This document shows positions 2,885 to 56,485 of a DNA stretch of 64,000 nucleotides, in pieces (position 1 is the first letter of the stretch; every line of letters begins with the position of its first letter). The position numbers and the translations under genes are program-made. The notes beneath the pieces are model-generated. The model saw only the letters and a list, made by a program, of their open reading frames with translations, did not search any database and was not told the origin of the DNA. The DNA comes from Bryobacterales bacterium. Lineage in GTDB: Bacteria; Acidobacteriota; Terriglobia; Bryobacterales; UBA6623. Where the stretch lies: positions 64,580 to 128,579 of the forward strand of contig OZ251486.1 in assembly GCA_965242705.1 (NCBI GenBank). Reading direction: 5' to 3'.

Positions 2885-4363
2885 TCAGCCGCCGGCCATG
2901 ACGCGCGCGCGCATGTTCACGGCCTCTTGCCACATTTCATCGAGATATTCGCCGTCCGCCGGTCCGTCATGATGCAGGAGGAGTTCCTGCCATTTCTTGC
3001 GAAGTTCAGTCGTTTGTTCCTCGTCGAGCGAATCGAGATTCAGCATCCAGCGAAGGATATTTTCGGCAACCTGGGCGGCGCTTTTGCGGTCTTCGCTGCG
3101 CATGCGCCAGTGATCGCCGCGCGATACGAGCAGGAGATGGCGCCAAGGGGCATCGTGCAGTTCCCATGAAACCCGAGAGAGCGGCTCCAGAGCCGACTTC
3201 ATCCGTTCGACATCCGCGCGTCCGCCTTGCGGGAAGCCGTCATCGAGCAAGGCGCGCACGAGCTTGGCGAAAAGTTCCTGGCCGATGGGCCAGAACACAA
3301 GGTGGTCGTGAAGGTGATCGTGAAGATCGCCCTCCCAACCTTCCTCGGCATGGCAGATCAGATGCACACCGACGCTCTCGATCCGTTGGTAGGGGGCAAG
3401 TCCCTTGTAATCTTCCCTGTCATGGCATCTCATAAGCAAAGGATTCCGTTTCAGATCTGGGAGCGTTTCCAGGATTGCGTCCCAGTACGCCGACAATTCC
3501 GCGTAGGCATCGTCAATGAAATCTTCTTCCGGGCGAATCTGCTTGTCCATGCTTCCGCCGTCTGAAAACCACCCTCGATTTATGCGTTCCCGCGTCGTGA
3601 GAAGAGTTTCGTTCATTGCATAGAGCGTTTGCAGCGCGGTGAAATGAGAATCATTGCTTTTCAGGTTTTTCCCCTTCGTCAGAACCTTGAAAGATTCCTT
3701 TTCCCTGCCCGGCGCGCGGAAAAAATCGTGGTCGGTAATCAGGCGGCGGGTCAAAATGGCGAAAAGGTCGTCTTCGTCCATGATGATGTTGGTGTCGCGG
3801 TCGGTCGGCTTGGCGTAGCGGTTCAAACTGGAAAACAGCCTGCGGTACCGCCGCAGCCACTCCCTTTCGGATACGTCGTGATCTTCGCGCAAAACCACGA
3901 TTACGGAAAGAAAATCTTCGTCGAAGCCCGCGGGAGGATTCTCGCGGGTGTTTCCGTTGACAAGCAATTTGACGGCATGTACGCGGTGCTGGCCGTCAAG
4001 CGCGTAATACTTGGGTTCATCGCAGAAAGAAAGAATGCCGAAAGTTTCTCCAAGAGATTTTGCAAGACTCTCGGGCACGGCGGACGGGTCTATTCTTGAA
4101 AGAGGAGTCCACGCCGGCTTTCCATCCATGGCGGCGACCACAATGGATGAGAAAAAGCGATCTTCTCTGCGCACCAGATAGCCGACGATATCTTTCTTGA
4201 CGCGGTTTTCCCCGAGAGTTCTCTGAATGGCGTCGCTCAGGGTCTTGTCTTGGTAAATATCGTGGGCAAGATCGACCTCGTGCGCGATCTCGCGCATCTT
4301 CATGCGCACGATAAAATAGTTCCAGTTTCCCATTTGGGCGCGAATCGCCGGGTAGATTTTCAT
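2885..4363 (-). CDS. DGQHR-domain protein (DndB-like / Pbe-type, ParB-Srx superfamily)
   Basis: 492 aa with the literal motif YALDGQHRVHAV and an N-terminal FPAIR-like start (YPAIRAQMGNWNYFIV). Last gene of the 8-gene operon. Confidence 0.8.
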   Translation of the reverse strand: MKIYPAIRAQMGNWNYFIVRMKMREIAHEVDLAHDIYQDKTLSDAIQRTLGENRVKKDIVGYLVRREDRFFSSIVVAAMDGKPAWTPLSRIDPSAVPESLAKSLGETFGILSFCDEPKYYALDGQHRVHAVKLLVNGNTRENPPAGFDEDFLSVIVVLREDHDVSEREWLRRYRRLFSSLNRYAKPTDRDTNIIMDEDDLFAILTRRLITDHDFFRAPGREKESFKVLTKGKNLKSNDSHFTALQTLYAMNETLLTTRERINRGWFSDGGSMDKQIRPEEDFIDDAYAELSAYWDAILETLPDLKRNPLLMRCHDREDYKGLAPYQRIESVGVHLICHAEEGWEGDLHDHLHDHLVFWPIGQELFAKLVRALLDDGFPQGGRADVERMKSALEPLSRVSWELHDAPWRHLLLVSRGDHWRMRSEDRKSAAQVAENILRWMLNLDSLDEEQTTELRKKWQELLLHHDGPADGEYLDEMWQEAVNMRARVMAGG

Positions 4364-4373
4364 GGCGGCCTCC

Positions 4374-4823
4374 TTACTCGCCTTGGATCATTTCGGCGAC
4401 CTCATCGGAGAGATGATCGAGCGCCGCATCTTCTCCGCATTCTTTCAGAATCGTTATCAATCGAGGCAGGCCGGCAAGGGCATACGCATTGGCGATACGC
4501 AGCATTTCGTTGGGATCCTGAGCCACATCCACATTGCCGGTGTGCGCTATCGCCAGAAGGATGAGCGCATCGGAACGCCAAGGGTCACTGCTCAAGGCGA
4601 CTCCTTCCATGGCCTTGTAGAGCTTGCTTTTGGTTTTGGTTTCCGGCTTAAGCCCTTCCCTGACCGCGAGGCAAACCGCGAAAAACCACATATCCACATT
4701 CCGCGGGAAGGGGCTGTCTTCCGGATTATTTCGCGATCCTTCGGCGCGCGTCAGACAATAGGCATGGAAATATTCCCGATACTTTTCGGGCAGCATAATA
4801 GCGGTTCTGTCAAACGCGTTCAC
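4374..4823 (-). CDS. small acidic protein; possibly the Dnd/Pbe-associated small subunit
   Basis: 149-aa ORF, 10 nt upstream of the DGQHR gene and 9 nt downstream of the DndD-like gene. No motif I can name; the assignment rests on position only. Confidence 0.45.
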   Translation of the reverse strand: MNAFDRTAIMLPEKYREYFHAYCLTRAEGSRNNPEDSPFPRNVDMWFFAVCLAVREGLKPETKTKSKLYKAMEGVALSSDPWRSDALILLAIAHTGNVDVAQDPNEMLRIANAYALAGLPRLITILKECGEDAALDHLSDEVAEMIQGE

Positions 4824-4832
4824 TGATCCCTC

Positions 4833-6947
4833 CTAACTCTTTTCGCCATCCACTTCTTTCGCTGCAATGGTCTCACGACGTTCGCAAATTTTGCAGTACT
4901 GCCGGTGGCCGCAGCCGCAAAGCAAAACCCTGGTGTCTTTCACGCTCGGCTTGTTGATGAGAATTTTTGGGTAATGCGCAGGGTTGGTAAACGTGTAAGA
5001 TTGCCCGGCATAGGTATCGAGGATACCTTCACATCCTTTAATTTCGTCATGCGTCAAAAAAAGGATGAGTTGCGAACTCTGCCGCACCGTATATTGCAGG
5101 ATGGCGGTTTTCACAAAGCCGGCCGCCATACCCAAGGGCGTATCGATCACATTCGGAGCGCTTACTTCGCTCACTTTGGTTAACGCCAAGATGAAAGCAA
5201 TGGTAAGCGCCCTGCGGGATGCGCCGTTCAAATCCTGCGACGGATCGAGAGGTTGTTCGTGTCGGCCGAATACGACAATTTTGAAATCCGATGTAATCTC
5301 CACTCGGATTATTATGGATCTCTGCGATGCATCCGCGCCGATCATGCCCAGGAACAAAGCGTTCATTTTTTCACTGACTTTACGGAGCTCGCTGGTTTTC
5401 ATTGCCTCCAAAGAATTTCCCAGAATGTCTTGCAGGTCTTGGGCAACTTCAAGCTCGGCGGCAAATCTTGCTCCCTGTTTGTCTTTGCTCAAGAGTTTTG
5501 CGCGTTCAGCTTCCAGTGACTGGCTTTCCCGCCGCTTCGATTCGAGCCGGGAGCTGAGGCGTATCTCTTGATCGCGAGCATCTCTGGATTGGTTGCGGTA
5601 GCGGTCTCTTGTAGTCCTTAGCTGCTGGGTGTCACTATCGGGAATCTGTGCGATTTTTGCCTCCACCGCCCGCTCGGCTTGCCCATAATGCTTGCGTCTT
5701 TTTTCAGCGTCTTGACGCCGTGCGAATGCTTCTGCGTGTTTATCGGCCCATGTCCGATCTCCGACCGGCGACAAAAGTTCTTGCGCGCTGAAGAAGAGCG
5801 CCGTAACTTTCTCTTGAATTGCGTCCGAGTTCCGGCTTTTTTCGATCAGGAGTTGGATGTTCTCCCTGCGTTTCTTCCCATCGGCATTGTGCGTATCGAG
5901 ACTCTCGCCGCAAATGCAATCGGGTTGGTTCAGGCGTTCCTCAAGAACAGGAATTGTCTGACTGGGAATCTTGCCTTGGGCGCGCAGCCGCTCCAGAATC
6001 CCTTTGGCCTTGGCAAACGGCTCGGACAACAGATGCTTGCCGAGCAGTTTACTTTGGAACAAATTCGTATGATCATGGGCAGCCCGCTCGGAATCTTTTT
6101 CGGCCAGTTTTCGCCCTCGAACAGCTTCTTCTCTCCGTTTTTCGAGGTCTTCCCTGTTGCCCTTGCGCAAGGCTTCTGAAAGCTCGTCATCGGCTTTCGA
6201 TGCAAGGCCGTCAAGGTTCATACGGATTTCTTTGGCCTTTTTGATATCTTCCTCAAGCTCTGGAATTTCCTCCTGGAGTTGCGCCAAGCGTTTCGTCACT
6301 TCGTCAAGCTGCTTGCCGCCGCCAACACCTTTCGGAATTTTCTGGTTGATGACTCTGCGAACTGTGCGCAGGTGGTCGCGGGCGTCTTCGATCACTCCAA
6401 CACCCAAAAGCTGGAGAATTGCGTTTTGGACCCGCTTCGTTTGATCTCCCCCCTCAATGAAGCTCAAAGCTCGGTCGCCGTCAGTGAAGAACACCTCGCG
6501 CAAGTCCATTGGGAGATGGGATTGGATGTGCGCTTCGGCATGGTCAAGCGGCTCCGCGCCTCTTGATTCCATGTTGTACAAACTGATATTGTCGTTCTGC
6601 CTATCCCATTTCCCGCCGGCAACTTTTTCGGTAACCTGCCGAATCAACCGATACTTTCTCTCTCGGCCATGCTTGTCCAGCGTCACGTAATCGACTTCAA
6701 CAGAAATGGCAGGAGAAGCTTCTTCACCGCTAGAGGCATCCAACGGACTCAAGCGAAAATCCCTTCCCGGATCCGGCAATCCTTGGTCTCCGAAAAGCCC
6801 CCATTGCAGAGCATGCAGCAGCGTCGTCTTGCCGCTCTCGTTGGCGGCGCGGATTACCGTGAGATTGCGGTCAGTTTTGGTTGAAAAATCAATCTCGACA
6901 TCTTTCAGAAGTCGAAAATTTTCAATGTGCGCACGCAACAGTTTCAT
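4833..6947 (-). CDS. DndD-like SMC/ABC-type ATPase
   Basis: 704 aa. N-terminal IENFRLLKDVEIDF...ANESGKTTLLHALQWGLFG (Walker A). Long coiled-coil middle rich in E/K/R/L. C-terminal Walker B LILFLTHDE. Cys cluster CGCGHRQYCKICERRE at the tail. Confidence 0.8.
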   Translation of the reverse strand: MKLLRAHIENFRLLKDVEIDFSTKTDRNLTVIRAANESGKTTLLHALQWGLFGDQGLPDPGRDFRLSPLDASSGEEASPAISVEVDYVTLDKHGRERKYRLIRQVTEKVAGGKWDRQNDNISLYNMESRGAEPLDHAEAHIQSHLPMDLREVFFTDGDRALSFIEGGDQTKRVQNAILQLLGVGVIEDARDHLRTVRRVINQKIPKGVGGGKQLDEVTKRLAQLQEEIPELEEDIKKAKEIRMNLDGLASKADDELSEALRKGNREDLEKRREEAVRGRKLAEKDSERAAHDHTNLFQSKLLGKHLLSEPFAKAKGILERLRAQGKIPSQTIPVLEERLNQPDCICGESLDTHNADGKKRRENIQLLIEKSRNSDAIQEKVTALFFSAQELLSPVGDRTWADKHAEAFARRQDAEKRRKHYGQAERAVEAKIAQIPDSDTQQLRTTRDRYRNQSRDARDQEIRLSSRLESKRRESQSLEAERAKLLSKDKQGARFAAELEVAQDLQDILGNSLEAMKTSELRKVSEKMNALFLGMIGADASQRSIIIRVEITSDFKIVVFGRHEQPLDPSQDLNGASRRALTIAFILALTKVSEVSAPNVIDTPLGMAAGFVKTAILQYTVRQSSQLILFLTHDEIKGCEGILDTYAGQSYTFTNPAHYPKILINKPSVKDTRVLLCGCGHRQYCKICERRETIAAKEVDGEKS

Positions 6948-7189
6948 GAATTTTTCCTTTTGGTCGTCTGGGGTTTGTGACGAGAGCGGTAGAGAAACAT
7001 GCCGACCGTATTCACTTTGTCGGTGATCTGCTTGACTACCGTGGTGCGAGTTATTCTATGCCCGCGTTCCGCTTGCAGGACTTCTCCGAGCAGATGGACA
7101 AATTCTTTTTTGTATCCAGGACACCGTTCCGGAACCTTCTTGAGTTCCTCAAGCAAAACCTTGATAACCTTTTTGTCGTTGTAGGCCAT
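6944..7189 (-). CDS. small basic hypothetical protein (81 aa), translationally coupled on both sides
   Basis: Internal ATG of ORF 6944..7456. Its start overlaps the helicase stop by 1 nt, and its stop overlaps the DndD-like start by 4 nt (ATGA). Confidence 0.55.
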   Translation of the reverse strand: MAYNDKKVIKVLLEELKKVPERCPGYKKEFVHLLGEVLQAERGHRITRTTVVKQITDKVNTVGMFLYRSRHKPQTTKRKNS

Positions 7190-9384
7190 CAGTTCATTAC
7201 CCTTTCGTTGGCGAGGTTTTGCAGATGCCGCACGGCCTCGTAGGGGCCGCCGTTGAGCGGGCCGTTTCTGCTCAGGCGGGCGAACTCCCATACTCTTTCG
7301 AGTTCGGAGCGCACCAGCTTTCTTGCGTCGGCGTCGAGGGTTTCGACCGTTCGCGAGGACGTTCCCGGCGGCAGCACCACGAAATCGTGGATTACGGCAT
7401 GGGTTTTGCCGATCTCCTTGCAGGTGCGCAGCAGGCGTCCGCGCCGCTGTATCCATTGGCGCCGCACGGTCGTACTGGCCAGGACGTAGGCCGTTTCGAT
7501 CTGGGGGATGTTCACGCCTTCGTCGAGAACCCGCTTGGCGGTCAGGATGCGCAGGCCGCCTTCCTGGAAGGCCGCAAGTATCTTTCGGGTTTGTTCGCGG
7601 CTGCTCGTTTCCTCGGCCGTCAGTTGGTGGAAAAGGATGCGTCTTTCCTGCAGGAGAGCGTTGACCCGCGCAAGCTGCTCGGGCTGCTTGTCGGTCGCGT
7701 AGATCAGCGTGTGCTTGAAGGCGCGGGGGCCGCGGTCGTCAAGCAGGCTCGCCAGGATATCGAGTTTCTGTTGCGCGGTTTCCAGAATCAGCCGCCGCTT
7801 GCGCAGGAGATTGTCCAGATACGGATCCCTTTCGCCGTCTTCGGTTTTCCATGAGAGGGCGGAAATCTTTTCCGTCAATTCCTGCCATGCGTCCATCTCA
7901 CCGCGGCTCAGTTCGGCGAAATGGACGTGGTAATCGTATTCGGTGAGGCATTTGCCGACGGCCTGCTCGAGGGTAAAAGAGAAACAGATATCGCCGAAAT
8001 AGGCGATCAGGGCATCGGTTCCTTGCTCATCGTACTGGCGGACGGGCGTTGCCGAGAGGCCGAGCCGGAAGTCGAAGATTTCCGGCGGGTCGGCGGTGAA
8101 GGACGCGGCGCCCAGGTTGTGGCACTCGTCGGCGATGAGCAGCTTGGGGGCTTTCGCCGCGGCAACGTCGGCGATGAATTTGGGGGTGCGGAGCGTATCG
8201 TTGCTGACGACCAGCGCTTCGGCGCGGGAGTTGCCCATGCGCAGCCGCCGTCCGGCCTGTTTGATTTCGCGCTCCCGCTTGCCCGGCCCGCCGGCCTCCG
8301 CGAGGTTGATCGGGCGGACGCCGAATTCTTCGATTTCGCCGCACCATTGTTCGATCAACGGCCTGTAGGGAGCGGAAACGACTACGAGCAGCTTGCCGAC
8401 TTCGTCTTGCAGGCGGGCGGCGCAGATCATGGAGGTAATCGTTTTGCCCGAACCGGTGGCCATTTCGAGGATGCCCTTGCGGCCGCTTTTCTCCCAAGCG
8501 GCGACGGCCTGCCCCTGATGGGCGAAGTCTCCGCTTTCGTAGATCAGCCAATCGGGGATATGGAGTTCGGCTTTGCCGATAACCGGATCGGGGGGCGGGG
8601 ATTGCCCAAGGGAAGCCGCGCTGCGCTCGCCGGGCAGCGCCTCGGTCTTGTATTTCCGCACGAGCCGGCGCTCGACGGCTTCGGGAAGGCGCAGGACGCG
8701 GCAATTTTCATCGCCGCCGGCCCAGAGGGCATCGAACTCCTGCCGGAGCCGCTCGACGTGGAAAACGGCCTCGGCGCCTTTCCAGTCGCGGGAGAGGGTC
8801 AGTTGCTCCTTGTTTCTGGACAGCCCGCCCTGGGTGAGATTGGTCGAGCCGTGCAGCGCGGCGCGGTTGGCGCCGTCCGCGAAAAGCCAGACCTTCGGAT
8901 GAAACAGGGCATCGCGCATGACGGCGACCTGGATCAGCAGCCGGTTTTGGGTAATCAGCCAGGCAAGGCACTCGAGGGTATGCCGGGCCAGCGCGTCCTC
9001 GTCGGGCACGTCGTTGATCAGGATGCGTTCGGCAAGGCGGGTCAGGGCTTCGCGGTCTTGCGTCAGGACGTCGAAATCTTCAGCGGTGAGAAAGGGGCTG
9101 ACGATCATGCGCATGGGCGCCGCGGAGTTGCGCAGGAAGGTTGCGAGTCCGGGGCCGATTTCGGCCAACGAGGCGCTCGAAAAATACCCGGTCATGACGT
9201 CGAGGGCCGCGCTCGCCCGCAGCGCGGGGATGAGCACTTCTTCAGCGATGGAGTCGCCCGGAAGCACGTACAGGGGATGCGCAGCGGATACCGCCAACTG
9301 CAGATCGGCCGGCGGCAAGCTGAAGCCGCCGGCCATTTGCCGCAAGGTTTCCGCGGGCGGCTGTTCGAGGTTCACTTGTGGCAT
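7189..9384 (-). CDS. PLD-family (single HKD) nuclease fused to an SF2 DEAD/DEAH (ResIII-type) helicase
   Basis: 731 aa. HKD motif HPKVWLFAD...HGSTNLT. Helicase motifs MATGSGKT (I), LLIADECHNLG (II), LGLSATP (III) and QRRGRLLR (VI). Confidence 0.85.
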   Translation of the reverse strand: MPQVNLEQPPAETLRQMAGGFSLPPADLQLAVSAAHPLYVLPGDSIAEEVLIPALRASAALDVMTGYFSSASLAEIGPGLATFLRNSAAPMRMIVSPFLTAEDFDVLTQDREALTRLAERILINDVPDEDALARHTLECLAWLITQNRLLIQVAVMRDALFHPKVWLFADGANRAALHGSTNLTQGGLSRNKEQLTLSRDWKGAEAVFHVERLRQEFDALWAGGDENCRVLRLPEAVERRLVRKYKTEALPGERSAASLGQSPPPDPVIGKAELHIPDWLIYESGDFAHQGQAVAAWEKSGRKGILEMATGSGKTITSMICAARLQDEVGKLLVVVSAPYRPLIEQWCGEIEEFGVRPINLAEAGGPGKREREIKQAGRRLRMGNSRAEALVVSNDTLRTPKFIADVAAAKAPKLLIADECHNLGAASFTADPPEIFDFRLGLSATPVRQYDEQGTDALIAYFGDICFSFTLEQAVGKCLTEYDYHVHFAELSRGEMDAWQELTEKISALSWKTEDGERDPYLDNLLRKRRLILETAQQKLDILASLLDDRGPRAFKHTLIYATDKQPEQLARVNALLQERRILFHQLTAEETSSREQTRKILAAFQEGGLRILTAKRVLDEGVNIPQIETAYVLASTTVRRQWIQRRGRLLRTCKEIGKTHAVIHDFVVLPPGTSSRTVETLDADARKLVRSELERVWEFARLSRNGPLNGGPYEAVRHLQNLANERVMN

Positions 9385-10214
9385 GCGAGGCAGACCTTGG
9401 CTTTTCCGTAGAGGTCATCGATATCGACGGGTTCGGCGTCGGGGCGGAGCGGGTTGCGCTGGAAGGCGGCGCGCATGCGCTTGAGGCGGCGCTCGTGTTC
9501 TTGCTTGATTTGGGCGACGCGCTCGGGTTTGGCGATGTCGATCAGCGATTCGCCCTGGCTCCAGGTGAAGGGCGAGCCGTGGTCGCCGGCGTGTTTTTCG
9601 TAGCGCTTGGCTTCTTCGAAGTATTCCGGGTGCCGCTCCATCAGCCGCACCCATTCGATTTTTTGCTGGAAGAAGCAGAAGGTGCAGCCGCTGCGGGTGC
9701 GCCATTCGTAGTATTGGGGCAGCCCCAGTCCCGCGCCTTCCAGGATTTCAAGGACGCCGGCCTTGTCGATGCCGGCGTCCTTGAAGGGCAGGCGGACGAC
9801 GAGATCGTCGTGCTTGGAGGCGTAGCCTTCGCGGTATTCCTCATCGGCGCGGATGGCGACGTAGCTGAACACTCTGGCTCCGTTGTCGAGCGCGGGCTTG
9901 ATCCACTGCTCGAAAGGGCGCAGCTTCAATTGCCGCGTACACCAGCGGGACTGCGGCGAGGGCAGGAAGTTGCCGTATTGCTTGAGCCAGAAATCGAAAT
10001 CGCGGTCGGGATTCAGGCGCAGGATGGGCTTGCCCAGGAACCCTTCGAGCTTGACCAGGAATTCATAGACTTCGGGCAGTTCCTTGCCGGTATCGGTGAA
10101 GAAGTAGTCGATATCGAGCTCGGGGCGGGTCTGGCGCATATGGACGGCCAGCGCCGCGCTGTCGCGTCCGCCCGACAGGCCGAGGACGTGCCGTTCCGGT
10201 TGCGTCTTGCTCAT
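9372..10214 (-). CDS. sspD: PAPS-reductase / ATP-pyrophosphatase family protein, SspD-like
   Basis: 280 aa with PP-loop LGLSGGRDS. Cys cluster CTFC and a C-terminal CLAC. Start overlaps the sspC-like stop by 4 nt. Confidence 0.75.
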   Translation of the reverse strand: MSKTQPERHVLGLSGGRDSAALAVHMRQTRPELDIDYFFTDTGKELPEVYEFLVKLEGFLGKPILRLNPDRDFDFWLKQYGNFLPSPQSRWCTRQLKLRPFEQWIKPALDNGARVFSYVAIRADEEYREGYASKHDDLVVRLPFKDAGIDKAGVLEILEGAGLGLPQYYEWRTRSGCTFCFFQQKIEWVRLMERHPEYFEEAKRYEKHAGDHGSPFTWSQGESLIDIAKPERVAQIKQEHERRLKRMRAAFQRNPLRPDAEPVDIDDLYGKAKVCLACHK

Positions 10215-13200
10215 GGGGCGGCTCCCTCTCGGTCCGCCGGCTCCGCGGCGTCCGTCAGATAGCGGGCGCTCAACTCGGCCAGGGCGGCCAGAACGACGTT
10301 TCGCGGCGCTTCGCCGGCTCCGCGCAGCGCCGCGTCGATGCGGTCGCGCAGCGCCCGCACTTTGGGGCGGTCACGGTCGGCGAGGTCGAATTCGCCGCTG
10401 AGCGGCGTCGGGCGTCCGTCGATGCCGACGACCACGGCCAGGGCATGGCGCTTGTCGGGGCGGCCCTTGACGCGGGCGAAGGTTTCGGCGCGCAGGAACC
10501 GTTGGGCCATGGCGGCGAGCTCGATCGCGGCGCGGTCGATATCGGCATCGACCCAGGCCGCGGGGGGCTTGTTGACGGCCATGCTCGCCAAGCCTTGCAG
10601 GTCTTCGCCGCTGCCTTTGAATTGGGCGAGGCGGACGACAAAGGCTTCGAGGCGGTTGTCGCCGGCAAGCCCGCGGACGTTGGCGGCGCGGCCGCGCAGC
10701 TCGGCCAGCATCGCCGGCGAGCCGTTGGGCACTTGCAGTTCGGCCAGCAGCATTTCTTTCATGCGGGCGAGCATCCGCGGATAGGCTTGCTGCAATTCCT
10801 CCAGGCCTTCGCGGACCCGGGTTACGATGCGCCGCGCGGTTTCCTTTTCGCCGCCCGGCGCGCTGCCGTCCGGCGTTTCGCCGTCGAGAACCGAGGGCAG
10901 GTCGTCGAAGATCAAGCGGTTCGGGTCGTTGGCTTGCTTGAAGAGCCGGCGGATACGCTTGGCGGCGCCCGAGAGTCGCTGGGTGCGGCCCGTCCAGGGC
11001 GGCAAGCGGTCGTGGATAGCCACGAGGCCTCTGGCCACGTCGATGGGTTCGAGGTTGCGGAGCGCGTTCGTCTCGTCGAGGGCGCGCACCGCGGAGGCCA
11101 GCCCGGAGAGCAGCCGCCGCGCCTCGTCGTCGAGATTCATCCAGCGCAACTGCACGTCGGCGGGGTCGTTGACCAGATAATCGATATCGAGATCGGCGAC
11201 GCCCGCCTGGAAGACGCCTTGGCGGTAGAAGGCCAGATTTTCACGCTGCGAGAGCAGGAACGCTACGGCCAAGACGGGCAGCAGGCCGTCTTTGACGCCG
11301 TAGGGCGGCCGCCGCCAGACGTCGTAAATTTCGGCTATCGGGAGCGCCCGATTGGCGTTGTCTTGCAGGTATTTTTCGGCGGCCCGCCAAGCGGGCGACA
11401 GGTTGCGGTTATGCGGGGGGGGGGGGGGGGGGGGGGCAAAGCGCAGCCCGGCCGGCGTTTCGCGGTACAGGCCGGCGGCGTCGAGCAGGGAGTCGAACAG
11501 GCCGCCTTCGGCGGGGAAGCCTTCGATGCCGAGCCGCGGCTCGCCTTCGTTGCCGACCATGCGCCGCAGGAGGGCGTTGCGCGCGGCGGCGGCGCTGCTC
11601 GACGGCTTCACGCGGCAGAGGAGCTCGTTGGGCAGCCGCGGCGCCTGCGAGAAGCGGGCGTCGGCAAGGTCGGAAGCGATGGCGTTGCGCGCGGCGGGGG
11701 ACAGCGGCTTGGCGTCGGGCGCAAGGCTGCTGCGCCAGAGCGCGCCGTCGAACGCGCGGGTCAACTCGCTTTCGAGCTTGGCTTGCGCGTCGGCAACGCG
11801 GGCGCGGACCTGCTCGCGCGCCACCCGGTCGCCTTGCAACTCGGGCGTTTCGTCGCGTACGCGTTCGAATGCCGCCAACTCCGCCGTCAATTCGGGAATG
11901 CTCCTGCCGTGCCGCGAGGTTCCAACCATTATGTCCCATTCGCGGTTTCGCCGCACGACCGCCCGGCAAATTGCCTCTGCTTCCGCCTGCGTTTCGCCCT
12001 GCGCGGGGACGGCGAGGAAGAAGCTGCCGAGCGCGCCGCGGCTCGGCTCGCGGGCGGCGGCGTCTTCGAGGCCGCTGAGGGGAACTATGCCGACGTCGAA
12101 CCAGCGCAAGGCGCCCGTTTCGTGGTAGTGGCGCTTGGCCACGACGGGCTGCAGGCCGGCGAGCGCGTTGAGCGAGGCGAAATCGGTTTCGTCCGTTTCC
12201 GCCCGCGCCTGCTCCACCGCCCGGTCGATATCGAAGTCGCTGCCCTCGAAGACCGCCCAGGCGCCCTCGTATTTGCGGAATTCGATCAGACGCCACTGTT
12301 GCAGGCGCTCGAGGGTCTTTTCGATTTGCGGGGGGCTGCAATCGGGCAGGGCGAGTCGCAGCAGGCGGGGGCTTGCGGGCAGGCCGGAGCGGTCTTTGAG
12401 CATATCGGCCAGGGCGACCGTCTTGAGCAGGCGGAGATGCAGGGCGCCGCCGCCCTTGTCTTGGCAGCGTCTCAGGGCGTCCGCGGCAAGCGCCCAGCGG
12501 TATCCGTCGGGCGAAGCCAGGATTGAGGGTTCGAGATTGACGCGCAGGTAGTCCCAGAGGCGCTCGGGGCCGTAGAGATCGCCGCCGTCGGCGCCGCGCA
12601 GAAAATCCTGGAAGCCTTGAGGCTCGGCCGAGTTGAGGAAGCCGAAGATGCTGCGTTGATTCTGTCCGAAGCGCCGCCGCGAAACGGGGCCGAGCAGGCA
12701 GGAGACGAGGGGATGCAGCGGGCGGCATTCCTGCAGATAGTCGGCGAGTACGGAGTCGGGCTGCCCCGAGGCGAGCTCGGCTGCGCCGGCGGCCAGCTTT
12801 TCGAGGCGTTTCGTCCGGCGGACGTTTTGGTTTTCGACGGCGCGGCTGAGGATGTCGATCTGCTCGTCCGGGGCGGCGTTGACGACAAGATCGACGAAGC
12901 GGCCCTGAATTTTCGACCATTCGCCGCGCATCTCGCGCGAGAGGCGGTGGGCGTATTCGGCGAACGCCTGATGGAGGATGCCGACGACGATCAGCCTGCG
13001 GTTGCTGCGCGAGGCCAGCTCGGCCATCTGCTGGAACAGATGGATATCGGCCTCGCCGCGGGCCGCGGCTTCGAGAAACTTGCCCATTTCGTCGAGGAAG
13101 ACGACCAGGCCGCCGCAGTTGCGGGGGTTGCGCGCGGCGATGCGGGAGAGGGCGTCGAGGACGCCTTGTTCGGTCCAGCGCCGCGGTATTCGGCCGCGCA

Positions 13201-13609
13201 AGAGGCGAGACTTGACGAGGGCTTCGCCGATGACCTGCTCGGGGCGGCCGCGCCGGCCGACCACGGGCAGGGTGCGCCAGCCGCTTTTTCGCGGCGGCAG
13301 CGCCTCGGCGAGCAGGGCTGCGGTTTCGTTGCCCAAGGCTTCCGCCGCGCGGCCGCGGACGGCCTCGTTTCCGTTGAGCGCCGCGCTCAGGGCAACGACG
13401 AGGCTCGACTTGCCGCCGCCGTAGGGGCCGGTCCAGGTGAACGCGCCCTGGCCGTTTTCGGCCGCGTGGCGGGCCATGTTTTCGAGCACGTCGGCGGACG
13501 ACTGGGGGCAGAGGAAGCCCTCGAGCGCGGCCGGATCGCGGAGATCGGCGTCGATGCGCACCGCGCGCCGGAAGCGCCGGGACACGCGCACCCGATCGGC
13601 AAGCGGCAT
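10211..13609 (-). CDS. sspC: large P-loop ATPase, SspC-like (DUF499/BrxC-type)
   Basis: 1132 aa. Walker A GPYGGGKSS and Walker B-like VVFLDEMGKF. Start overlaps the sspB-like stop by 1 nt. Contains an in-frame C22 run encoding Pro7. Confidence 0.7.
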   Translation of the reverse strand: MPLADRVRVSRRFRRAVRIDADLRDPAALEGFLCPQSSADVLENMARHAAENGQGAFTWTGPYGGGKSSLVVALSAALNGNEAVRGRAAEALGNETAALLAEALPPRKSGWRTLPVVGRRGRPEQVIGEALVKSRLLRGRIPRRWTEQGVLDALSRIAARNPRNCGGLVVFLDEMGKFLEAAARGEADIHLFQQMAELASRSNRRLIVVGILHQAFAEYAHRLSREMRGEWSKIQGRFVDLVVNAAPDEQIDILSRAVENQNVRRTKRLEKLAAGAAELASGQPDSVLADYLQECRPLHPLVSCLLGPVSRRRFGQNQRSIFGFLNSAEPQGFQDFLRGADGGDLYGPERLWDYLRVNLEPSILASPDGYRWALAADALRRCQDKGGGALHLRLLKTVALADMLKDRSGLPASPRLLRLALPDCSPPQIEKTLERLQQWRLIEFRKYEGAWAVFEGSDFDIDRAVEQARAETDETDFASLNALAGLQPVVAKRHYHETGALRWFDVGIVPLSGLEDAAAREPSRGALGSFFLAVPAQGETQAEAEAICRAVVRRNREWDIMVGTSRHGRSIPELTAELAAFERVRDETPELQGDRVAREQVRARVADAQAKLESELTRAFDGALWRSSLAPDAKPLSPAARNAIASDLADARFSQAPRLPNELLCRVKPSSSAAAARNALLRRMVGNEGEPRLGIEGFPAEGGLFDSLLDAAGLYRETPAGLRFAPPPPPPPHNRNLSPAWRAAEKYLQDNANRALPIAEIYDVWRRPPYGVKDGLLPVLAVAFLLSQRENLAFYRQGVFQAGVADLDIDYLVNDPADVQLRWMNLDDEARRLLSGLASAVRALDETNALRNLEPIDVARGLVAIHDRLPPWTGRTQRLSGAAKRIRRLFKQANDPNRLIFDDLPSVLDGETPDGSAPGGEKETARRIVTRVREGLEELQQAYPRMLARMKEMLLAELQVPNGSPAMLAELRGRAANVRGLAGDNRLEAFVVRLAQFKGSGEDLQGLASMAVNKPPAAWVDADIDRAAIELAAMAQRFLRAETFARVKGRPDKRHALAVVVGIDGRPTPLSGEFDLADRDRPKVRALRDRIDAALRGAGEAPRNVVLAALAELSARYLTDAAEPADREGAAP
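11415..11436. repeat. perfect 22-nt G homopolymer (C22 on the coding strand) inside the sspC-like gene
   Basis: Read directly: atgc + 22 g + caaagc. It encodes APPPPPPPH in the intact 1132-aa frame. Confidence 0.9.
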
Positions 13610-14556
13610 CAGGCGGCGCCCTTTCCGTTGCGCGCCGGATAGTCCGCGGCGAGGAAGTCGAGCGTTTCAGCGCCGGTTGCCTTGCGCTTGCGGGTCAATT
13701 GCTTCAATCCTGCGGCTTCCGACCAGTCGTAGAGGTCGCCGCTGACTTTCTGGAGATCGGCGAGCCGATCGGCCAGGTCGTTTTCTTCGAGCAGGAAGAC
13801 GCGGCCCGGAGAACCCGGCTCGTGGGCAAGGGCTTCGAAGGAAAGGGTATTGCGGGCGTCGGGGAAACGCGACCAGAAATCGGTCACCGCGTAGCAGAAT
13901 ACCCCGGCGCCGAGCGAAGGCTTGCCGCCGCGCATGAAGCGGAAACCGTCGCGCCGGCCGAGCGGACGGATCAAGCCGAGCTCGGTCAGCGGCGACTCGA
14001 GGGTATCTTCGCGGCTCGCCTTGCCCGAGGGCGTTTGGGCCGCGTAGGTGCGCACGAAGCAGGCCACGTCGTTTTTGAGGGTGGCGATTGAGAAACGCCA
14101 GCCGCGCTCCAGGGCGAGTTTTTCCAGTGTTGCGGTCAGCAGAGCGCGTTCGAAGAACAGGGCCGGGAAGTGGCTGAATGCCCAGAACCAAGTGGTTTTG
14201 CGCGGATTGCCGCAGAGGCGCCAATGGATCGTCCAGGCGGCGGCGGGGTTTTCCATCCAGGGGTCGAGGCCGCCGGGGGCGAACAGCCGCCGTCCGAGCG
14301 GGGTGGGCGCGGACGCCGCGGCGTCGATCACTCCGGCGGTCTCGGCCCAATGGCGTATCGAGGCGACCATGTTCTTGCCGACGCCGAAGCGGGCTATGGC
14401 GTCTTCGGCGGAGAAGACCGACTCGCCGAGGCCGGCGTCTTGCGCGGCCGCGGCGGCATCGACGGCTTTTTTGAGCCAGCCGTAGCGCAGGGGAAAGGTC
14501 TCGTGCCCGGAAAACCGGGGCTGGTAGCCGTTTTCGTAGAGGGGACCCCGCGGCAT
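13609..14556 (-). CDS. sspB: DUF4007-type protein, SspB-like
   Basis: 315 aa with N-terminal YQPRFSGHETFPLRYGWLKKAVD, which I recognise as the DUF4007 signature. First gene of the operon. Confidence 0.7.
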   Translation of the reverse strand: MPRGPLYENGYQPRFSGHETFPLRYGWLKKAVDAAAAAQDAGLGESVFSAEDAIARFGVGKNMVASIRHWAETAGVIDAAASAPTPLGRRLFAPGGLDPWMENPAAAWTIHWRLCGNPRKTTWFWAFSHFPALFFERALLTATLEKLALERGWRFSIATLKNDVACFVRTYAAQTPSGKASREDTLESPLTELGLIRPLGRRDGFRFMRGGKPSLGAGVFCYAVTDFWSRFPDARNTLSFEALAHEPGSPGRVFLLEENDLADRLADLQKVSGDLYDWSEAAGLKQLTRKRKATGAETLDFLAADYPARNGKGAA

Positions 14557-14682
14557 GGAATGGTCAATCTCGGCCGATCAGCCGGCTCGACTCAGCCGGT
14601 TCGACATGGGCGGTTCGACATGGGCGGCGCTTCGCGCTATGGTCAATGCTTGGTCGGCGGCAGGCTTCAGGCATCGGGAACC
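14557..14682. promoter_or_regulatory. divergent sspB/sspA intergenic region with direct repeats (candidate operator/promoter)
   Basis: Perfect tandem ggttcgacatgggc at 14598-14611 and 14612-14625. atggtcaat occurs at 14560-14568 and 14639-14647. Near-repeat gccgg(c/t)tcgac at 14581 and 14595. Confidence 0.45.
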
Positions 14683-15858
14683 ATGCGCGGCGCAACGACG
14701 GTCTATGCGGACTATCAGGCGACAACGCCGGTTGACCCGCGTATTATCGCAAAGATGGCCCCGTGTTGGGGCGAGGCGTTCGGCAATCCGCATTCGAGCG
14801 ATCACGCGGTCGGCAGGCTGGCGGAGGCGAAGGTGCGCGAGGCGGCCGCGTCCGTTGCGGCGCTGATCGGCGCCGATGACGACGAGGTGGTTTTCACTTC
14901 CGGCGCTACTGAAGCCAACAATCTGGCGCTGCTGGGATTGGCGCGGAGGGCGCCGGCGGGGCGGCGGCGCATCCTGACCAGCGCCGTCGAGCACAAGTGC
15001 GTATTGGCCGCGGCGCGGGCGCTGCAGGAGCGCGAAGGCTTCACGGTGGAGACGATTCCCGCGGACGGCGAGGGGTTCGTCGATCTCGAGGCGCTGGAGC
15101 GGCTGCTGGGCGACGACGTTCTGCTTGTTTCGGCGATGGCGGTGAACAACGAGGTGGGAACGATTCAGGACATCCCGCGGATTGCGGCGGCGGCGGCGGC
15201 GCGCGGGGTCGTCTTCCATTGCGACGCGGCGCAAGCGCCCTGCGCAATGGACATCGGCAGCCTTGCCGACCATGCCGGCCTGGCGAGTCTTTCGGGGCAC
15301 AAGATGTACGGCCCGCAAGGCATCGGCGCGCTGTACATTCGCCGGGATTTGCAGGAGCGCATCGAACCGCTGATTTACGGCGGGGGGCAGCAGAACGGCC
15401 TGCGTTCGGGCACCATGCCCATGCCGCTTTGCGTAGGCATGGGCGCGGCGGCGGCGCTGGCGGCGGGGGGCGAAGCGGCCGAGGAGCGCGAGCGGGTCGG
15501 GCGGCAGCGCGACCGGTTCGCGGGTCTGCTGGAAGCAGGGGCGTTCCCGGTTGCGGTGAACGGACCGGCTGCGGGGCGGCGGCACCCGGGCAACGCCAAC
15601 ATCCGTTTCGACGGGTTCGATGCGCACGACGTTCTGGGGGCGCTGCAGCCGCGGCTGGCGGCGTCCACCGGCTCGGCCTGCGCGTCGGGCATACCCGAGC
15701 CGTCGCACGTGCTGCGCGCGCTCGGCCTGACGGCGGCGCAGAGCGAAGCCTCGATCCGTTTCAGTTTCGGCAGGTTCACCAGCGACGACGAGATCGAAAC
15801 AGCGGCTCGGCTGGCGCTCGAGGCTCTGGAGTCGGCGTCGGCGGGGCGCGGCGGGTAA
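14683..15858 (+). CDS. sspA: class V PLP-dependent cysteine desulfurase, SspA-like
   Basis: Internal ATG of ORF 14170..15858. VYADYQATTPVD start, FTSGATEANN, SLSGHKMYGP (PLP lysine) and STGSACASG (active Cys). Confidence 0.8.
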   Translation: MRGATTVYADYQATTPVDPRIIAKMAPCWGEAFGNPHSSDHAVGRLAEAKVREAAASVAALIGADDDEVVFTSGATEANNLALLGLARRAPAGRRRILTSAVEHKCVLAAARALQEREGFTVETIPADGEGFVDLEALERLLGDDVLLVSAMAVNNEVGTIQDIPRIAAAAAARGVVFHCDAAQAPCAMDIGSLADHAGLASLSGHKMYGPQGIGALYIRRDLQERIEPLIYGGGQQNGLRSGTMPMPLCVGMGAAAALAAGGEAAEERERVGRQRDRFAGLLEAGAFPVAVNGPAAGRRHPGNANIRFDGFDAHDVLGALQPRLAASTGSACASGIPEPSHVLRALGLTAAQSEASIRFSFGRFTSDDEIETAARLALEALESASAGRGG

Positions 15859-56163: not shown

Positions 56164-56485
56164 TCCGCGGGCGCCTCGCCGTATTCGGCCGGTTTTTCGT
56201 CGGGCATGGCGTCGAAATAGGCCCGCAGGTTCACGTCGGTTTCGGCGGGCGGCCGGGCGTAGGGAGCGTCTTCGAAGCGCGGTCGAAGCATGGGCGCGCG
56301 CGGCCGGTCGGCGGCGGCCGGCAGGGTCTATTGTATTCCATCCCGCGGCCGATTTGCCCTTGCGGCAGCCGGACGTTTGGTTTGAGAAAACTCTGCGCAA
56401 GCAGGCAACAACGGAGGGCGCAGCCGCCCGACTCGCACCCCCCCGACTCGCACCCCCCCGACTCAAAAGCCCCAACGCACAATCA

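Follow-up and report, generated by a model that had tools for sequence, protein, structure and literature searches.

The window analysed here, a stretch of 64,000 nucleotides (nt) from contig OZ251486.1 of a Bryobacterales bacterium, carries a homopolymer of 22 cytosines (C22; G22 on the plus strand, positions 11415-11436) inside the minus-strand gene sspC (10211-13609), which encodes the 1132-amino-acid (aa) Orc/Cdc6-type AAA+ ATPase of a DNA phosphorothioate (PT) modification module. With a probability of about 0.65, this tract is a contingency locus, at which slippage during replication toggles PT writing. The original prediction of a slippage site that switches the reading frame of sspC is supported by the alleles of close relatives, which carry C22 in frame and C23 and C14 in the two wrong frames, and gains further backing from purifying selection downstream of the tract and from an independent G-tract in another sspC lineage. 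Alleles with an uninterrupted sspC frame are referred to as ON and those with a broken frame as OFF.

The G22 run is real: direct reading of the plus strand gave 22 consecutive G residues without interruption at 11415-11436. On the coding strand the sequence over the tract is TTT GCC (CCC)x6 CCG CAT, corresponding to F724, A725, P726-P732 and H733, so that the proposed slippage tract lies within codons 725-732 and its seven prolines are encoded by six CCC codons and one CCG. The description from which this work started, 22 G residues encoding Pro7 in an otherwise intact 1132-aa frame, was thus borne out, as was the remark that proline codons elsewhere in the gene are a mixture of CCG and CCC (56% CCC and 41% CCG in the rest of sspC). 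Within the window, of which 64% is GC, no other homopolymer exceeds 7 nt. The number of G/C runs falls about four- to five-fold with each additional base, with 19 runs of 6 nt and two of 7 nt, and beyond the 7-nt runs the distribution leaps to the single run of 22 nt; for this reason an origin of the run by chance is excluded. The two 7-nt runs both lie at 56430-56462, where a 15-nt unit (GACTCGCACCCCCCC) is present twice in tandem with one C7 run in each copy; these are the only other 7-nt G/C runs in the window. The frame of sspC is kept in the lineage of the window at tract lengths of 3n+1, for instance 13 or 22, and any change by a number of bases not divisible by three cuts SspC to 733 or 755 aa. 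The truncation had been placed about two-thirds of the way along the protein, and the allele with one additional base does stop at residue 733 of 1132 (65%).

Alleles of the same species were obtained from ENA metagenome assemblies labelled PANK22-1, the contigs of which are 96-97% identical to the window at the nucleotide level. Judging from the name and the BioSample range, PANK22-1 probably represents the Caribbean sponge metagenomes of PRJNA555077; if these are sponge samples, the reported enrichment of sponge metagenomes in PT and Pgl defence genes (PMC5099237) fits the setting. The protein cluster formed at 90% identity around the SspC of the window contains fragments of 733, 755, 450, 353 and 354 aa. 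The window allele, with G followed by C22, is in frame and ON. In contig L001 the tract is A followed by C23, and the frameshift leads immediately to a TAA stop, leaving fragments of 733 and 353 aa (OFF). In contig L010 it is GT followed by C14, which gives the other wrong frame and fragments of 755 and 354 aa (OFF). The three conspecific alleles that span the tract are therefore of three lengths in three frames, and over 6.6-7 kb at 96-97% identity the indel at the tract is the only one that breaks a frame in sspB, sspC or sspD. Four further conspecific short-read contigs stop at the tract or 52-58 nt short of it; that of L014 ends with ...GCGCTTTGCCCCCCC (also given as ...CTTTGCCCCCCC) and that of L018 with ...GCGCTTT, and one contig stops after seven C residues. 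Such breaks are compatible with the effect of a long, possibly heterogeneous homopolymer on short-read assembly, and they also fit a difficulty of sequencing.

The run or its differences in length might also be products of sequencing or assembly that do not exist in the cells. Long G/C homopolymers are hard for all platforms, an error of +/-1 base would be enough to reverse the state read from any one assembly, and four of the six short-read contigs of the window species break at the tract. The tract is, however, present at the same codon in independent assemblies made from different samples and on different platforms, and its flanks are unique coding sequences with orthologues. The lengths differ by 8-10 nt and at most by 17 nt (C14 versus C22/C23, and G12/G22/G29 in the second lineage described below), which is far beyond homopolymer miscalling. 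An assembly artefact, which we regard as extremely improbable, was rejected on the basis of these length differences of 8-17 nt and of the independent assemblies, in which C23 and C14 occupy this same site.

The state of the DNA downstream of the tract was estimated from the ratio of nonsynonymous to synonymous substitution rates (dN/dS), calculated by the method of Nei and Gojobori for the 400 codons 3' of the tract. The ratio was 0.09 between the window and L001, 0.14 between the window and L010, and 0.18 between L001 and L010, both of which are OFF, and no stop codon was found in the native frame downstream of the tract. When the same DNA was read in a shifted frame as a control, the ratios were above 2. 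For comparison, the values were 0.16-0.19 for glnE, which is located past sspA in the window, and 0.27-0.39 for the N-terminal part of sspC. Purifying selection 3' of the tract, detected even between two OFF alleles, indicates that the OFF alleles are recent and are not old pseudogenes. The frameshifts are thus recent relative to the divergence of 3-4%, as expected if the tract repeatedly switches between states.

The tract is not an ancestral feature of SspC. The window protein matches the PADLOC SspC model PDLC02780 with E=0 and 1244 bits (residues 3-1062 on model positions 1-1044/1045) and 12 more PADLOC SspC models; it also matches the PADLOC BrxC/PglY models (E=3.5e-112) and, weakly, Pfam AAA_16. 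Its Walker A (GPYGGGKS, residues 61-68) and Walker B (VVFLDEMG, residues 169-176) motifs are invariant columns in an alignment with orthologues. In the 19 aligned orthologues (60-69% identity), the place of Pro7 is taken by a loop of seven variable residues (for example PETDADS or PRPNARS) that lies between the conserved flanks GWRF and NL.P.W. None of 120 orthologues contains a proline run of at least four residues, and neither a Pro nor a Gly run was present at the tract site in these 120 close protein matches. The comparison with orthologues that had been proposed as a check thus gave a mixed, non-proline loop in distant relatives and not a proline run; since the loop is variable and free of proline runs in the orthologues, the tract is specific to a lineage. 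The homopolymer thus arose in the lineage of the window, within a permissive linker. No relative of SspC was found by sequence in the PDB, and an AlphaFold model of the protein is of low confidence (pLDDT 60, pTM 0.34); in this model residues 725-737 are predicted, at that low confidence, to form a coil between a beta-hairpin and a helix. A search of JGI metagenomes for the exact flanks of the tract separated by a variable gap gave 0 matches, and a protein-guided scan of the same metagenomes gave only orthologues at 43-55% identity.

A second sspC gene with a long tract was found in an unrelated bacterium. The species of the window is not among the GTDB species representatives, in which the top match to its SspC is 54% identical, and the scan of these genomes yielded locus L009. 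Among a total of 24 distant sspC loci scanned, L009 is the one that carries a long G/C run within sspC. It is located on the complete chromosome OZ251482.1 of a Caldilineaceae metagenome-assembled genome (MAG), encodes an SspC 51% identical to that of the window and contains G29 at L009:8005-8033. Here the coding strand carries the G-run, which encodes a run of glycine and replaces the loop equivalent to window residues 686-691; the window tract is situated about 40 residues further downstream. As assembled, the gene is split into frames of 698 and 418 aa, and removal of one G restores an uninterrupted frame of 1114 aa. Full-length proteins of 1113 and 1116 aa occur among the 13 members of the 90% cluster of this protein, as do N-terminal fragments of 686, 687, 694, 698 and 719 aa. 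At the DNA level, the tract is G12 in L038 (OFF), G13 in L037 (ON, 1113 aa), G14 in L035 (OFF, 89% identity), G22 in L036 (ON, 1116 aa) and G29 in L009 (OFF); three further Caldilineaceae alleles, with states and lengths inferred from protein only, are OFF with G14, G15 and G17. The tract therefore exists in at least six lengths, both ON and OFF. A comparison of L036 with L038 over 9030 nt gave 10 substitutions and, outside the tract, indels totalling 3 nt, yet their tracts are 10 G residues apart. As in the window species, dN/dS 3' of the tract is low (0.17-0.36) and the neighbouring ssp genes are intact in the OFF strains. About 420 kb of further sequence contained no G/C run of at least 12 nt. 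The same kind of tract evolved independently in a second, unrelated sspC lineage, again in what is predicted, by a low-confidence model, to be a coil between secondary-structure elements. Two pairs of loci come from shared samples, L038 with L001 and L037 with L018, which means that the window species and the Caldilineaceae organism co-occur. Pooled over both lineages, the 11 alleles divide into 3 in frame and 8 OFF.

The position of both tracts in coils predicted between secondary-structure elements, albeit by low-confidence models, could be read as a role in structure that involves no frameshifting, either as a selected poly-Pro or poly-Gly linker or, at the level of DNA, as a G-quadruplex, into which the G22 of the template strand might in theory fold. 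The two lineages are discordant: the residues are opposite in nature, rigid proline versus flexible glycine, the loops are different, and the strand with the G-run is the coding strand in L009 but the template strand in the window, which makes the geometry of a quadruplex inconsistent. The in-frame alleles encode between 4 and 7 residues and are outnumbered by those out of frame, and a linker needs no pure homopolymer, given the mixed use of CCC and CCG elsewhere in sspC. A purely structural role is accordingly very improbable.

Tract length could also act as a dial instead of a switch, if slippage of RNA polymerase, or of the ribosome, along a run of 12-29 nt made every allele produce both in-frame and out-of-frame mRNAs; tract length would then tune the amount of SspC, and the OFF alleles would be leaky. 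Transcriptional slippage at long poly(A) tracts is established as a rescue of frameshifts in insect endosymbionts. It is likewise established that stalling at poly-proline is relieved by EF-P, and the Pro7 run would add a dependence of translation on this factor. Such a dial would explain why the codons 3' of the tract are under purifying selection in every allele and why the frames are distributed nearly at random. Slippage of this kind is, however, best documented for runs of A or T, and the efficiency at C/G runs is uncertain since the rC:dG hybrid is the most stable. The dial is considered improbable; it is compatible with heritable switching at the DNA level, and both could act together.

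The genetic context of sspC determines what the loss of its product would mean. Upstream of sspC on the same strand is sspB (13609-14556; 315 aa, DUF4007; Pfam DUF4007 8e-80, PADLOC SspB 5e-99), and downstream is sspD (9372-10214; 280 aa, PAPS-reductase-like; PADLOC SspD 4e-135). The gene for the cysteine desulfurase SspA (14683-15858, plus strand; 391 aa, PADLOC SspA 2.7e-126) is divergent from sspB. Downstream of sspD on the minus strand are located pbeA-like (7189-9384; 731 aa), which codes for a PLD/HKD nuclease fused to an SF2 helicase (PADLOC PbeA 4e-193; Pfam ResIII, DEAD, Helicase_C and PLDc_2), an 81-aa open reading frame (ORF) at the position of pbeB (6944-7189), pbeC-like (4833-6947; 704 aa), which codes for an ABC ATPase (PADLOC PbeC 4e-49 and DndD 2e-38; Pfam AAA_23 and AAA_15), a 149-aa ORF at the position of pbeD (4374-4823), and as the final gene of the cluster that for a DndB-like protein of the DUF262 type (2885-4363; 492 aa, Pfam DndB 5e-26, PADLOC DndB). 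The 81-aa and 149-aa ORFs are assigned by position only, genes of 75 and 149 aa being located at the same places in L010. The minus-strand operon therefore has the order sspB, sspC, sspD, pbeA-like, 81-aa ORF, pbeC-like, 149-aa ORF and DndB-like. No SspE, SspF, SspG or SspH family was found among the PADLOC matches of the downstream genes of the window, which were to PbeA, PbeC and DndB-like families only. Because of this gene content and these family matches, the system is assigned as a putative Ssp-type PT writer joined to a PbeABCD-like reader.

Adjacent genes of the operon overlap. The stop codon of sspB overlaps the start of sspC (TGATG), that of sspC overlaps the start of sspD (ATGA), pbeA-like and the end of sspD share 13 nt, and the start of the 81-aa ORF overlaps the stop of pbeA-like (TGATG). 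The ssp operon is thus predicted to be translationally coupled to the PbeABCD-like module. The divergent intergenic region between sspA and sspB, 126 nt in length, is the likely promoter region; scans for promoters and terminators were uninformative. Within this region, two overlapping 14-nt tandem repeats of two copies each were identified by Tandem Repeats Finder at 14578-14627. The copy number varies from strain to strain; this repeat region lacks 14 nt in L001 and L011 and 28 nt in L010, and represents a second length-variable repeat at the ssp locus. The plus strand of the window is rich in G (22129 G versus 19070 C), so that the minus-strand ssp-pbe operon may be transcribed head-on to replication. 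An Rfam scan of the whole 64 kb gave no tRNA, rRNA, riboswitch or other RNA at gathering score, and Neisseria-type DNA uptake sequences, which would have hinted at a taxon prone to phase variation, were not enriched in the window. Among named matches to the GlnE of the window, the nearest are MAGs labelled Bryobacterales and Acidobacteriia, at 47-48% identity.

The reader module 3' of sspD is swapped among conspecific strains (window 2885-9384, L001:10439-15635, L010:9041-15556). The window and L010 carry pbeA-B-C-D-like genes and a DndB-like gene, and at this place L001 carries a 161-aa ORF, a DndB-like protein (469 aa), an SNF2 helicase (556 aa) and another DndB-like protein (488 aa). Only the first 560 nt of the pbeC of L010 align to that of the window, with a synonymous divergence (dS) of 0.73. 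The Caldilineaceae reader differs as well, being composed of a GIY-YIG-like protein of 110 aa and a DndB-like protein of 420 aa. An AbiEi/AbiEii toxin-antitoxin pair adjoins the Caldilineaceae ssp locus (L009:12893-13894, L036:7067-8913), marking this region as a defence island.

Under the proposed switch, the nascent and template strands would mispair within the run during replication, and bases would be gained or lost. At lengths of 3n+1 the frame would be kept, and an active SspC would be made with a short poly-Pro loop, or a poly-Gly loop in the second lineage, in a variable surface linker. At other lengths SspC would be truncated at 733 or 755 aa with the loss of about 400 conserved C-terminal residues, and no PT would be formed. 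With a Pbe-like reader, loss of PT would turn OFF the whole of the PT defence without autoimmunity, and a later slippage would restore the frame and turn the defence ON again. Each population would then be a mixture of PT-positive, defended cells and PT-negative cells that are undefended but free of the cost. The premature stop, 1.2 kb upstream of sspD, would in addition lower the expression of sspD and pbeABCD through the loss of translational coupling; given the stop-to-start overlaps of the genes, the OFF state may thus lower the expression of the reader as well. Reversibility within a clone, loss of PT and of defence in the OFF state, its lack of toxicity, the polar effect and the selective benefit are steps that we infer.

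The consequence of the OFF state depends on the type of reader. The action of SspE is PT-dependent. The same holds for PbeABCD of Haloterrigena, which acts only together with PT, and there deletion of dnd is not toxic (PMC6459918). SspFGH and DndFGH, in contrast, damage host DNA that is unmodified (PMC8092258). It had been suggested that writing switched off under an active reader would be self-toxic; this is probably wrong for the window, the reader of which is PbeABCD-like, since the one Pbe system studied needs PT and is harmless without the PT genes (PMC6459918). By analogy with this PT-dependent example, OFF in the window organism probably means that the entire defence is lost silently and without toxicity.

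A number of observations weigh against the contingency-locus reading or against parts of it. The 3 of 11 alleles in frame are close to the neutral expectation of 1/3 and give no sign of selection for the ON state at sampling. At 3-4% divergence, a tract of 22 nt could by chance (probability about 0.46) have remained without interruption, so that the purity of the tract is in itself no evidence of selection. The absolute lengths of the tracts were read from assemblies, and errors in long G/C runs are common in short as well as long reads; the ON state of the window itself could therefore be one base off. In a third conspecific strain, L011, codon 451 of sspC has changed from TGG to TGA (W451*; L011:4402-4404), and a Logan contig from a different run, L012, stops exactly at this single-nucleotide polymorphism, which suggests polymorphism at this site within a sample. 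The W451* allele demonstrates tolerance of, or selection for, the loss of sspC, as would be expected under decay and under switching alike. With respect to the reader, the 81-aa and 149-aa ORFs gave no PADLOC or Pfam match, and the presumed lack of toxicity is extrapolated from an archaeal Dnd-Pbe pairing to a bacterial Ssp-Pbe pairing.

Several of these points would be expected of a mutational hotspot of no adaptive value, that is, of a chance homopolymer in a tolerant loop that repeatedly breaks sspC while the locus is being lost. The 8 of 11 alleles that are OFF come near the 2/3 expected without selection on the frame, the nonsense allele is independent of the tract, and defence islands turn over fast, as is seen here in the swapping of the reader module. 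Decay of this kind is, however, difficult to reconcile with the dN/dS of 0.18 between two OFF alleles that are free of downstream stops, and with the integrity of the neighbouring ssp and pbe genes, which are full length in the OFF strains L001 and L010. This rare kind of run originated on two occasions, in unrelated lineages and at different loops, and on each occasion the gene was sspC; both lineages retain long tracts in all alleles, neither lost nor interrupted. A mere hotspot is thus considered unlikely, and slippage in a contingency locus is the reading adopted here.

The nearest precedent is the G-tract in pglX of Streptomyces coelicolor, by which the Pgl/BREX system undergoes phase variation at 1e-2 to 1e-4 (Sumby & Smith 2003, summarised in PMC4365076). 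SspC is homologous to BrxC/PglY, the ATPase of the Pgl/BREX family (PMC12839542). Pgl (BREX type 2) and the system of the window have in common a high-GC bacterium and a poly-G/C tract in the coding sequence of a modification component of phage defence. They differ in that the Pgl tract is located in the methyltransferase gene pglX and the mark is N6-methyladenine, whereas here the tract is in an AAA+ ATPase gene and the mark is a phosphorothioate in the DNA backbone; the tracts described here are also much longer (up to 22-29 nt), and their switching is inferred from natural alleles. Phasevarions of Type III mod and Type I restriction-modification genes in Haemophilus, Neisseria, Helicobacter and Campylobacter likewise combine a simple sequence repeat (SSR) in a modification gene with ON/OFF switching through slipped-strand frameshifts, which makes an epigenetic mark heterogeneous across the population. 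They control base methylation in host-adapted pathogens of low or medium GC and are often based on tetra- or pentanucleotide repeats; an equivalent in a PT writer is not known to have been described.

Among PT systems, the writer of the window, consisting of SspA, SspB (DUF4007), SspC and SspD, is the same as that of SspABCD-SspE and SspABCD-SspFGH (Xiong 2020; PMC8092258; PMC9646914), but its reader is PbeABCD-like with a DndB-like protein, and the model systems are without a homopolymer in sspC. The haloarchaeal DndCDEA-PbeABCD system (PMC6459918), since re-annotated as a CxC-ABC ATPase/DndE system (PMC10853773), has the same arrangement of PbeA-like and PbeC-like genes with a small ORF between them, directly 3' of the PT-writer genes. 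In the window, by contrast, the putative Pbe module is paired with an Ssp-type writer, in a bacterium. A review of PT modification in 2018 described PT as partial and heterogeneous in a way that resembles phase variation, and stated that no SSRs are present in dnd genes or promoters (PMC6435447). Full-text literature searches gave no report of a repeat-driven switch for PT modification, and the statement made at the outset that no such tract had been reported for Ssp or Dnd agrees with these searches and with the review. What is described here is probably a known switching mechanism, found twice in a class of modification from which it was thought to be absent.

A tract that evolved twice and varies in length within the gene for the writer ATPase would provide a concrete genetic mechanism for the all-or-none heterogeneity of PT. 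A wider proposal, to which we assign even odds, is that PT epigenomes are phase-variable through SSRs, with heritable and reversible PT-ON and PT-OFF subpopulations, or a 'PT phasevarion', serving as a bet-hedging of defence that has emerged convergently in two bacteria. The field of contingency loci would widen beyond base methylation in host-adapted pathogens and take in sulfur marks on the DNA backbone in high-GC environmental bacteria. Short-read assemblies break at tracts of this kind and gene calls are divided by them, so that PT systems of this type will be under-counted or taken for pseudogenes in MAG surveys. The coexistence of ON and OFF alleles would also offer a natural experiment on the cost and benefit of PT, in which phage defence is set against sensitivity to oxidants or to PT-targeting nucleases.

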